A stretch of DNA of 5,201 nucleotides from a virus (taxonomy: Duplodnaviria; Heunggongvirae; Uroviricota; Caudoviricetes), in the IMG/VR virus record IMGVR_UViG_638341084_000014; one strand, given 5' to 3'. The translations under genes were made by a program, and so were the position numbers. Below the pieces are notes generated by a model. It made no database searches, was not told where the DNA came from, and was given only the letters and a program-made list of their open reading frames with translations. Each line of letters starts with the position of its first letter. Positions within the stretch are counted from its first letter, which is position 1. This document shows positions 1,283 through 4,083 of this stretch, in pieces.

Positions 1283-1509
1283 TTTCTTTCCTCTGTTATG
1301 CCATCACCCGCGCTCACCTGGACAGTATGCAGCGGAGACTGAAGCGCCGCAATGCAAGCTTGCCGTGTTGTGAGGTAAGGAGATTTTGGCTTGGTTGGAT
1401 CTTTACGTGTTGCCTGTAGGCGGCCTGTTCGTATCCAGTTGGTGGCGGTTGGTCTGGATATCTTAAGAAACTGACAGGCCTCATCGAGTGTGAGGCTGTA
1501 TGGCTCCAT
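1138..1509 (-). CDS. xis: Excisionase / AlpA-type helix-turn-helix DNA-binding protein (Xis)
   Basis: N-terminal HTH region [35 protein letters not shown] is typical of phage excisionase/AlpA-family proteins. The ATG at 1507-1509 overlaps the stop of the upstream gene (TAATG) and is preceded by a GAGGTG Shine-Dalgarno motif. The gene sits immediately upstream of int. The 3' end overlaps int by about 145 nt in another frame, so the true C-terminus is uncertain. Confidence 0.7.
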
Positions 1510-1814
1510 TATTTCACCTCTTGCTGTGTCATTGTTGAAAAATGGATACCAGCTCGTTGCTGCCAGACGATCCAACCGAGAGTCATATCCCATGCCATGT
1601 ATTCGTTATCGCCGTTTTTTACTCTCCGACGATCTACTAAGTCACCGAAACGCTTTTCCATGAATAATTCATAGGCTTCGCGTTCATCTGGCTCTACTTC
1701 CAGAGATACGAGTGCGATTTCATAAGCACGGCGCTCAATATCGTCTCGAACCTCTAGGCTGCTGATTCGTTCTTTGATTTCTTTAATCAGTTCTTTATTG
1801 GTAAATGTGGTCAT
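1509..1814 (-). CDS. yfdT: Prophage protein of unknown function, YfdT-like (101 aa)
   Basis: 101-codon ORF translationally coupled at both ends (TAATG overlaps at 1812-1816 and 1507-1511). Its length and operon position match YfdT of E. coli KplE1/CPS-53, as recalled. Confidence 0.7.
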   Translation of the reverse strand: MTTFTNKELIKEIKERISSLEVRDDIERRAYEIALVSLEVEPDEREAYELFMEKRFGDLVDRRRVKNGDNEYMAWDMTLGWIVWQQRAGIHFSTMTQQEVK

Positions 1815-2176
1815 TATGCTCCAGCCTCCGGTGCTTTTGGCATTACTGCCCAGTGAGTGATATTGACGTTTTCAAGGTCCCCGACCTGAAATGTCCACTG
1901 CCATTCTCCGGTTTCTTTTTGTCCCCAGGTGTACCAGAGAGAACGCCAGCCAATCAGCCAGCCTTCTCCATTAGCATCAAATAACAGAACACTTTCATTT
2001 GCTGGTGGCAGTTCAGCTGACACTGGTATTATTTTGTTTTCCAGTGCCGCACATTTAGCTTCAAGCGCGTCGAATTTACGTAACAGGTACTCAGCATTTG
2101 TTTCGTTCACTTTCAGATCTCGCGGTACACATTTCCCGCGAAGAAACCCTTCCATTTCGAAAACATTCATGCGCAT
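1814..2176 (-). CDS. yfdS: Prophage protein, YfdS-like (DUF551-like, 120 aa)
   Basis: 120-codon ORF with a GGAG Shine-Dalgarno motif 8 nt upstream of the ATG at 2174-2176. The start overlaps the 3' end of the yfdR-like gene by 10 nt. A Trp-rich C-terminal region (GWLIGWRSLWYTWGQKETGEWQW...THW) resembles DUF551. Confidence 0.75.
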   Translation of the reverse strand: MRMNVFEMEGFLRGKCVPRDLKVNETNAEYLLRKFDALEAKCAALENKIIPVSAELPPANESVLLFDANGEGWLIGWRSLWYTWGQKETGEWQWTFQVGDLENVNITHWAVMPKAPEAGA

Positions 2177-2703
2177 TTGCGTAACTCCGATAAATCGTTA
2201 AAACGTTCCATAAACATCCCGTAGGCATGACCCGGTGCCAGTGGAATCACGTTGAACATCTCTGTTGCCGGGATGCCTTCCAGTACAGGCCAGAAAGAGC
2301 CATCATCAAGCCCGAGATCGCGGCGTTCGGTTGCCAGCATGATGAGATCGGCATATTTCACGGGTGTACTCATAACTGGGGATAACCCGTATTTCTCACG
2401 GATTACGGCGTCTATTTTTTCTTCCATCCGTTTATAGTCAGGAAGAAGGCGTTTCAGTGGTGCGGGAATGTCCTGGCAATACGCTTCTGTTGCATCATGC
2501 ATTAACGCTTCAAAAGCAAATTCTTGCGGCACCAGCTGGCTGCAAAGAACCGCATGTTGGGCGACGCTGTAGAAGTGCGAAAGATGACCGGCAAAGCGAC
2601 AGATATTTGAAAGGGAAACCGCGATATCGTTAATATCGATGTCGTCTTTATTTATCTTGTCATAATAAAAATGCTTCCCGGAAAAAGTTTTAATAAATGA
2701 CAT
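2167..2703 (-). CDS. yfdR: HD-domain phosphohydrolase, YfdR-like 5'-deoxynucleotidase (178 aa)
   Basis: HD-domain signature residues are present (…SVAQHAVL…EALMHDATEAY…). The preferred start is the ATG at 2701-2703, with GGAG 7 nt upstream; the track ORF extends to a GTG at 2730 with no better RBS. The 178-aa length matches E. coli YfdR. Confidence 0.85.
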   Translation of the reverse strand: MSFIKTFSGKHFYYDKINKDDIDINDIAVSLSNICRFAGHLSHFYSVAQHAVLCSQLVPQEFAFEALMHDATEAYCQDIPAPLKRLLPDYKRMEEKIDAVIREKYGLSPVMSTPVKYADLIMLATERRDLGLDDGSFWPVLEGIPATEMFNVIPLAPGHAYGMFMERFNDLSELRKCA

Positions 2704-2796
2704 TTTGTTCTCCACGTATATGCACTGCACCGCGCTGAATTCTGGTAAAAGGAAGCCCTCACCATCCGGTGATTATTGAGTTAATTACGTTTCCAT

Positions 2797-2818
2797 AAAT
2801 GCCCCCGCAGGGGCATTT
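2797..2818 (-). other. Perfect 9-bp stem / 4-nt loop hairpin (AAATGCCCC-CGCA-GGGGCATTT) between the yfdQ-like and yfdR-like genes
   Basis: Seen directly in the sequence. It begins 12 nt after the yfdQ-like stop. There is no U-tract after the stem on either strand, so at best it is a weak terminator or an RNA-processing/stability element. Confidence 0.3.
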
Positions 2819-2830
2819 GCAGTAATGAAA

Positions 2831-3655
2831 TCAGGCGGTGAAAGTACCAATAAAGGTTTCTACTTTGCTGTCTTTGAATTTCTCAACAAGCAGATCACGA
2901 AATTCGTTAGCCATTTCTTCCTGCACCGCTTCCAGCTGAATAATGCGCAGAACCAGTACAGGACGATCGCCAGTGATAATGCTGAGGCGTAATTTAAACG
3001 GACGTTCTTTCAGACCTTCAAACGGAACGCATTTAAATTCAAATGCCACTGGCATAATGTCTTTGGTCTTCGCTTCGACAGACTCCATCAGGGAGCGTTT
3101 GCCGCTGAAGTCATTATCTTCAAAATCAGCGGTCTGGTTTGCTTCAATCGTGATTTTACGGACTGCCGCAGCCGCTTTTGTTGCTTGAATGGCGTCACCA
3201 TTAGCATCAAAGCCCACAAGGTAGTCGGCCCAGTCTTCGATCCATTCTGCCAGTGACTTCTGGGAGTTACGCTCGCCGTTAACAGACAACAGAGCAGAGA
3301 ACGGTGCTGTCTTTTTCAGTTTGAGAGTGGCAGTGTTATCTGCGTGACCTGGCTCATCAATAGTACCCAGGTTAAGCACACTGACGGCACGCATATTATC
3401 GGCATCGATAAAGCAGCGGGTGCCTTCATCTGCAAGATCTTTAGAATAACGGGTAAAATCATCGATGCTGGCAGTGGAAAGTGCACCACGGAAACGGAAG
3501 CGATTTAAATTAAATTTTTCCAGATCATGAATGCGGAAATTCTCAGGCAATGCCACAGCATCGGCACCAATCTTACTGATAATTTCATTAACACTCTGAG
3601 CAGAAATAAGGGCATGGATTTGATTAATTGCGGTTGCGTCTAAGTTCTGAGACAT
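2831..3655 (-). CDS. yfdQ: Prophage protein YfdQ-like (DUF2303 family, 274 aa)
   Basis: 274-codon ORF with a GAGGA Shine-Dalgarno motif 7 nt upstream of the ATG at 3653-3655. Its length and position in the yfdP-Q-R-S-T order match E. coli YfdQ. Confidence 0.85.
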
Positions 3656-3720
3656 AATAAGTCCTCACTATATAAAGATATTCAGTGATGAGATAAATAA
3701 TCAGTTTATTACGAACGATA

Positions 3721-4083
3721 TTAACGACCTGCTGCGCGGAGTTTTCCGTCAGGTTCACCGGCAAGAGTCAGTAATTGTCCCTGGTCTTCCTGCAGAATAG
3801 TCAGGCGACCACCGCGATTGACATACATCGGCGTTTCGGTGGTGTCTTCTTCGGAAATTTTCCCGCGGTTAGTTGGGCGAACATATGAGAGTTTGTGTTT
3901 GATTTTCACACGGTTCTCATCAAACGGTTCGATTTCCAGATTGAGTGAGACCTTCCCTTTGGTTTTCGTGTTCATCACACCGGAAGCGACCTCACTGAGA
4001 ACTGCGCCGATTTTGGTTTCAAATACGCCGCCGTCCAGCTCCCCGATAAATGCCTGCACATCAGTACTGCGTTCGCTAGCCAT
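3721..4083 (-). CDS. yfdP: Prophage protein YfdP-like (120 aa); first gene of the minus-strand operon in this window
   Basis: The preferred start is the ATG at 4081-4083 (MASERSTDVQAF...), with a strong GAGGAG Shine-Dalgarno motif 8 nt upstream. The track ORF extends to 4248 through GC-rich sequence with no RBS. The 120-aa length matches YfdP. Confidence 0.8.
   Translation of the reverse strand: MASERSTDVQAFIGELDGGVFETKIGAVLSEVASGVMNTKTKGKVSLNLEIEPFDENRVKIKHKLSYVRPTNRGKISEEDTTETPMYVNRGGRLTILQEDQGQLLTLAGEPDGKLRAAGR

Follow-up and report, generated by a model that had tools for sequence, protein, structure and literature searches.

The five genes yfdP, yfdQ, yfdR, yfdS, and yfdT are known from the CPS-53 (KplE1) prophage of Escherichia coli K-12 (b2359-b2363) and are the subject of a dedicated functional paper (PMC4776307). 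In that work, YfdR pulled down DnaA, bound its domain I in a manner dependent on DnaA Phe46, and competed for DnaA with both DiaA and DnaB. Multicopy yfdQRS or yfdQRT suppressed over-initiation mutants and inhibited initiation at oriC in the wild type, yfdQR alone was insufficient for the initiation block, and extracts over-supplied with YfdQRST inhibited oriC replication in vitro (PMC4776307). YfdR-DnaA binding, established with the K-12 protein, is the only demonstrated molecular step for these genes. The lambda P protein, Bacillus subtilis SirA, and E. coli Dps are likewise small DnaA binders that lower initiation at oriC, and SirA and YfdR both rely on the equivalent phenylalanine of DnaA domain I (PMC4776307). 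YfdR is nonetheless unrelated to the three in sequence, and it differs in being an enzyme-like HD protein that in vivo depends on YfdQ together with YfdS or YfdT. Here, we analyzed a 5,201-nucleotide (nt) stretch of viral DNA (IMG/VR record IMGVR_UViG_638341084_000014), referred to below as the window, which carries these five genes. We consider them probably an early-left (pL-side) accessory operon, orthologous to K-12 yfdPQRST, that would serve host takeover and replication control in lytic development rather than forming a five-protein stoichiometric machine. An earlier, sequence-only reading of this DNA had called the members other than its HD-domain nucleotidase functionally uncharacterized, which is at odds with the YfdR-DnaA binding and yfdQRS/yfdQRT inhibition described above, with mutant phenotypes cited in the same paper, and with a deposited structure of a YfdQ homologue, 9o7m (PMC4776307; see below).

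All five genes lie on the minus strand and are followed on that strand by xis and a stub of int, giving the right-to-left order yfdP, yfdQ, yfdR, yfdS, yfdT, xis, int stub. The first pair consists of yfdP (3721-4083; 120 amino acids [aa]), with the Shine-Dalgarno sequence GAGGAG upstream, and yfdQ (2831-3655; 274 aa), with TGAGGA, the latter encoding a member of the DUF2303/YfdQ family. An HD-domain phosphohydrolase of 178 aa is encoded by yfdR (2167-2703), read from the ATG at 2703; the mechanical open reading frame (ORF) starts upstream of this, at GTG 2730. The product of yfdS (1814-2176; 120 aa) combines an N-terminal module with a C-terminal DUF551, and that of yfdT (1509-1814; 101 aa) is a mosaic protein whose N-terminal ~50 residues are common to other PHROG families. 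Protein alignments against K-12 gave identities of 118/120 for YfdP, 271/274 for YfdQ, 176/178 for YfdR, 119/120 for YfdS, and 98/101 for YfdT (97-99% overall), with all E-values at 4e-75 or lower, which establishes homology of the five proteins rather than chance similarity. The gene sizes and the yfdP-to-yfdT order given by the sequence-only reading are correct. Judged by its sequence, the block is the already annotated yfdP-yfdQ-yfdR-yfdS-yfdT of SfV/CPS-53-type E. coli prophages; thousands of E. coli genomes already bear its annotation, as do several sequenced phages, and its re-identification by itself adds nothing new.

We then considered the genomic setting of the block. Many E. coli chromosomes match positions 988 to 5201 of the window at 99.8-100% identity, and at least 80% of the whole window is present in 265 of 5426 complete genomes. 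A prophage in strain FDAARGOS_1059 matches the window at 100% from window position 803 to the right end; this prophage sits at tRNA-Arg beside fimZ and continues rightward with a LexA-family cI, cro, ymfL, an O-like replication gene, a Dam-type methylase gene, and rusA. PhiR49_1 shows the same arrangement to the right and carries the same block plus xis-int at 99.8% DNA identity. The Shigella phages SfIV and SfV also have the block followed by xis-int, at about 96% DNA identity (orf32-orf28-xis-int in SfV), and the structured leader upstream of it is common to SfV, SfIV, and PhiR49_1, though SfV has orf33 where the window has a plus-strand gene, orfX. Because the block lies between xis-int and cI/cro in the FDAARGOS_1059 prophage and PhiR49_1, it probably belongs to the early-left arm of a lambdoid prophage, most likely of the SfV/SfIV/PhiR49_1 type, with transcription predicted to come from a pL-like site. 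This candidate, a minus-strand TTGTCA-17-TAGATT in FDAARGOS_1059, falls at the equivalent of window 5215-5243, beyond the right end; it adjoins AACTTAG-type repeats that recur between cI and cro, and a pR-like site lies ahead of cro. Position and strand are thus as expected for a lambdoid early-left region in both the FDAARGOS_1059 prophage and PhiR49_1, while the promoter is only a consensus match. The early-left placement first proposed from the sequence agrees with the cI-like repressor, cro, and leftward promoter-like site found just past the right end in the matching prophage.

K-12 CPS-53 agrees with the window in the identity, order, and lengths of the five genes and in the 10-nt R/S and 1-nt S/T overlaps, but it differs on both sides of them. 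Downstream, alignment shows that K-12 follows the window and SfV to ~55 nt into xis and is unrelated beyond that point, and that in K-12 the xis ATG is ATA; as the sequence-only reading had stated, and as synteny and alignment confirm, K-12 has ypdJ, the xis remnant, followed by torI, and intS is at the far end of the prophage. Upstream, homology starts 22 nt before the yfdP ATG, and the K-12 genes are joined to yfdO with SrsR boxes and no STnc100-like leader. These limits of homology on both sides suggest that CPS-53 is a mosaic that received only the P-T cassette. In turn, since SfV, SfIV, and PhiR49_1 are complete phage genomes, yfdT-xis-int can be taken as the native arrangement. The earlier proposal that this locus preserves the ancestral arrangement therefore holds for the gene order but not for the copy itself, as the integrase that is intact in SfV, SfIV, and PhiR49_1 is cut in the window at codon ~98 by an IS66-family insertion sequence (IS) element.

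The K-12 junction also bears on whether these are domesticated genes kept for host benefit, that is, for surviving oxidative or DNA-damage stress under host regulators and independently of phage function. Weak sensitivity of yfdQ mutants to methyl methanesulfonate and H2O2, and sensitivity of yfdS mutants to H2O2 (both cited in PMC4776307), would fit this, as would the finding that no genomic site is bound more strongly by the K-12 host regulator SrsR than the yfdO/yfdP spacer, and that SrsR increases the amount of yfdPQ mRNA in stationary phase (PMC9181523). The SrsR boxes, however, belong to a junction specific to K-12. The K-12 spacer is non-homologous to the window leader, and matches to the K-12 box TCAGATTTTGC are at chance level in the window (3 found against 2.3 expected), so SrsR control of this copy was rejected. 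With the same genes present in active temperate phages and in phages of Xanthomonas and Vibrio, primary selection appears to act on the phage, and we regard host benefit as a rather improbable explanation of the block.

The sequence-only reading had presented P-Q-R-S-T as a translationally coupled module. Its three overlaps are exactly where it put them: the yfdR stop and yfdS start have 10 nt in common (2167-2176), and the yfdS stop with the yfdT start (1812-1816) and the yfdT stop with the xis start (1507-1511) each form TAATG, a 1-nt overlap. Overlap or near-abutment was thus seen at R/S, S/T, and T/xis but not at P/Q or Q/R, where spacers of 65 nt (from the yfdP stop to yfdQ) and 127 nt (from yfdQ to yfdR) intervene. 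As these two pairs are separated by gaps, the term "translationally coupled" applies only to R-S-T-xis; a separate Shine-Dalgarno sequence precedes each of yfdP, yfdQ, and yfdR. Within the yfdQ-yfdR spacer, sequence inspection and RNAfold gave a minus-strand hairpin (2797-2818) with a perfect 9-bp stem and a 4-nt loop, AAATGCCCC-TGCG-GGGGCATTT. The hairpin lacks a clean U-run and was not called by a strict terminator scan; it is a possible weak terminator or transcript-stabilizing element that would set P-Q apart from R-S-T. In K-12, yfdPQ is treated as an operon of its own (PMC9181523), and this treatment, the spacers after P and Q, and the Q-R hairpin all speak against the stoichiometric co-expression of all five genes that had been read from the overlaps.

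To define which of these genes travel together, two samples were used: 78 loci encoding a YfdQ relative, one genome per species, searched with the window proteins, and 80 E. coli viral contigs with a YfdQ at least 99% identical (the diverse YfdQ alignment recovered only near-identical E. coli contigs). Across species, 76 of 78 loci had yfdP immediately ahead of yfdQ; in the other two, yfdQ was present only as its C-terminal part (residues 113-274), in one case because of a contig end. The next gene was yfdR in 58 loci, with yfdS in 6 and yfdT in 4. Among the E. coli viral contigs, P-Q-R was found in 75 of 80, which were all those with enough downstream sequence, the other 5 ending within 2.4 kb of yfdQ. 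Full S and T were present in only about 30 of the 80, the remainder having none, one, or a partial copy. Taken with the split PHROG matches described next, these counts show that the stable unit is P-Q, usually with R, and that S and T are exchangeable "ea"-type modules. The five genes do not, then, co-occur as the conserved unit that had been supposed, since only P-Q and, less strictly, R keep together.

YfdS and YfdT have the features expected of such modules. YfdS matched DUF551 (PF04448) at a borderline 22.1 bits, the cut-off being 22.0 (residues 50-117 aligned to positions 3-68 of the 68 in the profile), and its N- and C-terminal halves match different PHROGs. DUF551 is a portable domain that also occurs in Ea22 variants (PMC10834534). 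Like lambda Ea22 and other "ea" mosaic proteins, YfdS joins a DUF551 C-terminal domain to a separate N-terminal module, and YfdT has only its N-terminal ~50 residues in common with other families. Both proteins are much shorter than Ea22, however, and there is no evidence of a lysis-lysogeny role for them. Their mutual similarity is not significant (E 0.31), though they are interchangeable in the K-12 assay.

These patterns also bear on a five-subunit, stoichiometric YfdP-Q-R-S-T complex. Such an assembly could account for the stop/start overlaps at R/S, S/T, and T/xis and for the genetic need for Q, R, and either S or T in K-12 (PMC4776307). It is harder to reconcile with the gaps at P/Q and Q/R and the hairpin between Q and R, with the lack of S and T from >90% of P-Q loci in other species and their variability among E. 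coli phages, or with the genetic substitution of S and T for each other in spite of having no detectable similarity. The xis gene, whose product is clearly not a subunit, is part of the same overlapped string, and pull-downs showed no stable association of YfdQ, YfdS, or YfdT with YfdR (PMC4776307). We think it very improbable that the operon encodes a complex of this kind.

YfdR retains intact HD metal ligands (H50, H69-D70, and D119, along with E73 and D78), placing it within the HD superfamily, and it matched PDB 2gz4 (E 5e-13) with AQH...HDA.E....D...K.AD retained. Relative to K-12 YfdR, the window protein has aspartate for valine at 23 and serine for proline at 108. As for what YfdR does, one explanation is nucleotide-pool manipulation, in which its main activity would be that of a deoxynucleoside monophosphate (dNMP) phosphatase, comparable to phage T5 Dmp or host YfbR, with the other operon genes incidental. 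YfdR has the HD-domain phosphohydrolase fold and metal-ligand motif in common with these enzymes, including the H...HD...D residues seen against 2gz4. It gave matches at up to 4.3e-109 (the value for phrog_318) to PHROG families 318, 6402, and 8467, whose annotation is deoxyribonucleoside 5'-monophosphate phosphatase, and PGAP names the gene 5'-deoxynucleotidase. These names, though, are transferred annotations and not tests. YfdR reached only 20 bits against NCBIfam NF003009 (the YfbR equivalog, EC 3.1.3.89), for which the cut-off is 122, and is therefore not a YfbR orthologue; it scored 24.4 bits against the Pfam YfbR-like profile (cut-off 25.9), and HD_3 was also sub-threshold, both over the motif region. 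YfdR's affinities for nucleotides are far below those of YfbR, its only demonstrated interaction is with DnaA, and its function "remains elusive" (PMC4776307). R is also missing from 20 of the 78 P-Q loci, and we judge nucleotide-pool manipulation to be unlikely. Of the earlier description as an HD-domain 5'-deoxynucleotidase, the HD assignment thus stands and the nucleotidase label is weak, and the accompanying speculation on nucleotide pools finds little support in the YfbR-model score or the reported affinities (PMC4776307). By analogy with its 99%-identical K-12 counterpart, the window YfdR would probably act as a DnaA-binding inhibitor of initiation.

To the right of yfdP is a 470-nt non-coding, highly structured stretch. 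Within it, on the minus strand, lies an STnc100/PasD-like small RNA (sRNA) element (4219-4442), which matched RF02076 over the full model length with 40.3 bits and an E-value of 2e-7, below the gathering threshold of 47. STnc100 has been related to the PasD prophage sRNAs (2026 preprint). RNA folding showed that the element ends in a hairpin (4227-4268) and a U-run (4221-4226), and this leader is kept in SfV and absent from K-12. Two more minus-strand hairpins follow, one in the yfdP leader (4133-4219) with 24-nt arms that are 83% complementary and a small one (4102-4121) just ahead of the yfdP ribosome-binding site. Over the STnc100-like stretch, PGAP places a frameshifted hypothetical gene in FDAARGOS_1059, and a mechanical ORF of 123 aa (4098-4469) overlaps it. 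Beyond the leader, orfX (4554-5069, plus strand) belongs to phrog_1244, a family without an assigned function, and has its own terminator at 5108-5127. It is bracketed almost exactly by a 26-nt inverted repeat (4517-4542 and 5071-5096; 85% complementary), and three TGGATATCCA-like palindromes cluster round it, at 4342-4351, 4521-4530, and 5083-5092. In the FDAARGOS_1059 locus (L001), 5 such palindromes were present against 0.5 expected. We rejected them as repressor operators, as the matching prophage has none between cI and cro; they might instead delimit a cassette or be bound by a different regulator.

The most widely conserved part of the block is the YfdP-YfdQ pair. YfdP matched phrog_204 at 1.2e-49, and its homologues at 98% identity bear the precomputed Pfam label PF27127, which places it in the YfdP family. 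YfdQ matched PF10065 (DUF2303) over its full length with 309.5 bits, where 26.6 is the cut-off (residues 7-272 aligned to positions 2-269 of the 269 in the profile), as a standalone protein of the ~270 aa typical of the YfdQ family. A family-profile search gave 1823 YfdQ clusters at 50% identity, with nearly all members 265-285 aa long. We also note that a few E. coli proteins (P0011, P0073, and P0160) carry both PF27127 and PF10065 domains with partial coverage; because the normal arrangement has a 65-nt spacer, these are probably deletion or frameshift products rather than natural fusions. AlphaFold2 modeled YfdQ as a two-lobed alpha/beta protein (predicted local distance difference test [pLDDT] 76) with a disordered loop at 173-197, and YfdP as a single long helix lying against a sheet of three strands (pLDDT 70). 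In the PDB, entry 9o7m contains 36 chains named "YfdQ Protein," which match YfdQ in sequence at E 9e-45. By tblastn, the 9o7m chain belongs to CP2-like phages of Xanthomonas, with 98.9% identity to the YfdQ homologue encoded by phage MET23-P3; a homologue lies at locus L083, 5965-6789. The 36 chains hint at a large assembly, or else reflect crystal packing. A literature search found no paper on 9o7m, and no YfdP-like chain was found in the PDB, even by profile search.

P-Q was also seen among recombination and single-stranded DNA-binding protein (ssb) genes in distant phages, where P is a gene of 115-135 aa preceding the YfdQ gene. The Stx2a phage VT2phi_272 has gam-recT-exonuclease-ssb-[P]-Q, and Xanthomonas phage CP2 has P-Q-ORF36-erf-exonuclease-endonuclease-ssb, with CP2 ORF38 identified as a YfdP homologue by profile comparison at a probability of 99.5%. 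Vibrio phage 44E38.2 carries epsilon-type exonuclease-[P]-Q-ssb, and two marine prophages, from an Endozoicomonadaceae genome and from Hahella, carry erf-yqaJ-P-Q-ssb and gp157-P-Q-ssb, respectively. In Pseudomonas phage pAN, [P]-Q is followed by two more genes and then by a 3'-5' exonuclease and a phosphohydrolase, and Salmonella phage ST64B is arranged as cI-P-Q-R...Ea22-like, 3'-5' exonuclease, xis-int. The DnaQ-like 3'-5' exonuclease (Rv2179c-like, PF16473) of pAN (L166, 6712-7398) and ST64B (L168, 8265-8834) was also found on the same strand downstream of yfdQ/yfdR in 20 enterobacterial loci (L011, L029, L031-L033, L035, L037, L038, L042, L046, L048, L049, L053-L055, L066-L068, L079, and L070); the operon as it stands in the window lacks this gene. 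This neighborhood, and only this neighborhood, is suggestive of a role for P-Q in phage DNA metabolism.

The same neighborhoods help to weigh an anti-defense or superinfection-exclusion module, directed against other phages or host immunity, which the sequence-only reading had raised as speculation. Genes of this type are frequent in variable early regions like the one that contains the block, the neighboring orfX looks like an independently terminated "moron," an added gene carrying its own signals for transcription, and a phage dATP/dGTP pyrophosphohydrolase to which an anti-restriction effect is ascribed also has DUF551 (PMC10834534). YfdP to YfdT nevertheless matched none of 5027 PADLOC models at E-values up to 0.1, the literature search returned nothing in support, and the position of P-Q beside recombination and ssb genes across distant phages is a better fit to core DNA metabolism. 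An anti-defense function therefore has little to recommend it, and we consider it quite unlikely.

We return to the accessory operon for host takeover and replication control as the probable explanation of the block. On loss of repressor, leftward transcription would start from the pL-like promoter outside the right end, run antisense through orfX and across the STnc100/PasD-like RNA and its terminator, and reach yfdP; with a terminator ahead of yfdP, any pL transcript must read through it. YfdP and YfdQ would be translated from their own ribosome-binding sites, as an obligate and widespread pair belonging to phage recombination/replication modules, and yfdR, yfdS, yfdT, and xis would be read as an overlapped, translationally coupled string. 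YfdR, with its weak dNMP phosphatase character, would bind DnaA domain I, competing there against DiaA and DnaB, and would act jointly with YfdQ and either YfdS or YfdT to restrain initiation at the host oriC, as the 99%-identical K-12 proteins did when over-expressed. YfdS and YfdT would act here as exchangeable "ea"-type mosaic proteins. Several points weigh against this account. The pL-like site, which is located beyond the window, matches the consensus at 9 of 12 positions, a figure no higher than that from shuffled sequence. Annotation of the related prophages and phages examined (FDAARGOS_1059, SfV, and PhiR49_1) includes no N-like antiterminator gene, despite the terminator before yfdP. 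Early-left regions are grab-bags of genes, and it is from gene neighborhood alone that the function of P-Q is deduced; the YfdP and YfdQ models had no meaningful relative among solved structures in a fold-search library that did not include 9o7m. In the K-12 work, yfdP was dispensable for the initiation block, pull-downs showed no strong binding of YfdQ, YfdS, or YfdT to either YfdR or DnaA, the inhibition was seen with multicopy expression, deletion of yfdQRST had no initiation effect, and the authors allow for an over-expression artefact (PMC4776307).

Downstream of the block, the full xis and the int fragment that had been predicted to follow yfdT were both confirmed. The 123-aa product of xis (1138-1509, minus strand, from the ATG at 1509) matched the helix-turn-helix (HTH) profile HTH_17 with 35.5 bits (cut-off 27) and fell just under the cut-off for TIGR01764 (27.7 against 28.8). 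It aligned with positions 1-116 of 117 of the excisionase family phrog_2907, which identifies it as an excisionase. Annotation of xis is inconsistent between records. In FDAARGOS_1059, PGAP marks an incomplete HTH pseudogene that covers just the initial 22 codons (L001 7183-7248, equal to window 1444-1509), and the SfV record has an xis of 147 codons whose start falls within the gene before it; the 123-codon reading, which begins at the TAATG overlap, agrees with phrog_2907 from one end to the other. Overlapping xis by 145 nt from its start at 1282, the int stub (988-1282, minus strand) encodes the N-terminal ~98 codons of a tyrosine integrase, and its ORF continues into the IS element to a stop at 971. 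The stub matched integrase family phrog_10426 at positions 1-100 and lacks the C-terminal catalytic domain, falling short of a full family member. Homology to intact prophages begins at window 988. To its left is the right-hand part of the IS66-family element (1-987, plus strand), which ends ...GCGCTTAC at 987 and includes the C-terminal part of the transposase (72-773); it matched DDE_Tnp_IS66 with 216.8 bits and also NF033517. The transposase shifts frame near base 52, with "...RLWVYVRDD" in frame 1 and its continuation in frame 3 (bases 48-72), and this copy looks frameshifted, or else contains a one-base sequence error. In FDAARGOS_1059, an IS679 copy interrupts this int gene at another point, which suggests repeated insertion of IS66-family elements into the integrase. 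The prophage copy in the window is defective because its IS66-family element removed the catalytic part of int.

Beyond the known block, P-Q offers a narrower point of interest. Our tentative proposal, which has less than an even chance of being correct, is that YfdP-YfdQ could be an unrecognized, widespread two-protein DNA-metabolism device that acts beside Gam, single-strand annealing proteins, exonucleases, and SSB or, in SfV-type phages, from the place taken in lambda by the recombination genes. YfdQ may form a large homo-oligomer, the pair might guard or process phage DNA ends or replication intermediates, and YfdR would be an add-on linking the pair to DnaA shut-off. The deposited 9o7m suggests that a structural study of the YfdQ family exists and that other groups are probably working on it. 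What this locus points to for the family is that P-Q is conserved from enterobacterial lambdoid phages to phages of Xanthomonas, Vibrio, and Pseudomonas, usually among recombination and ssb genes.

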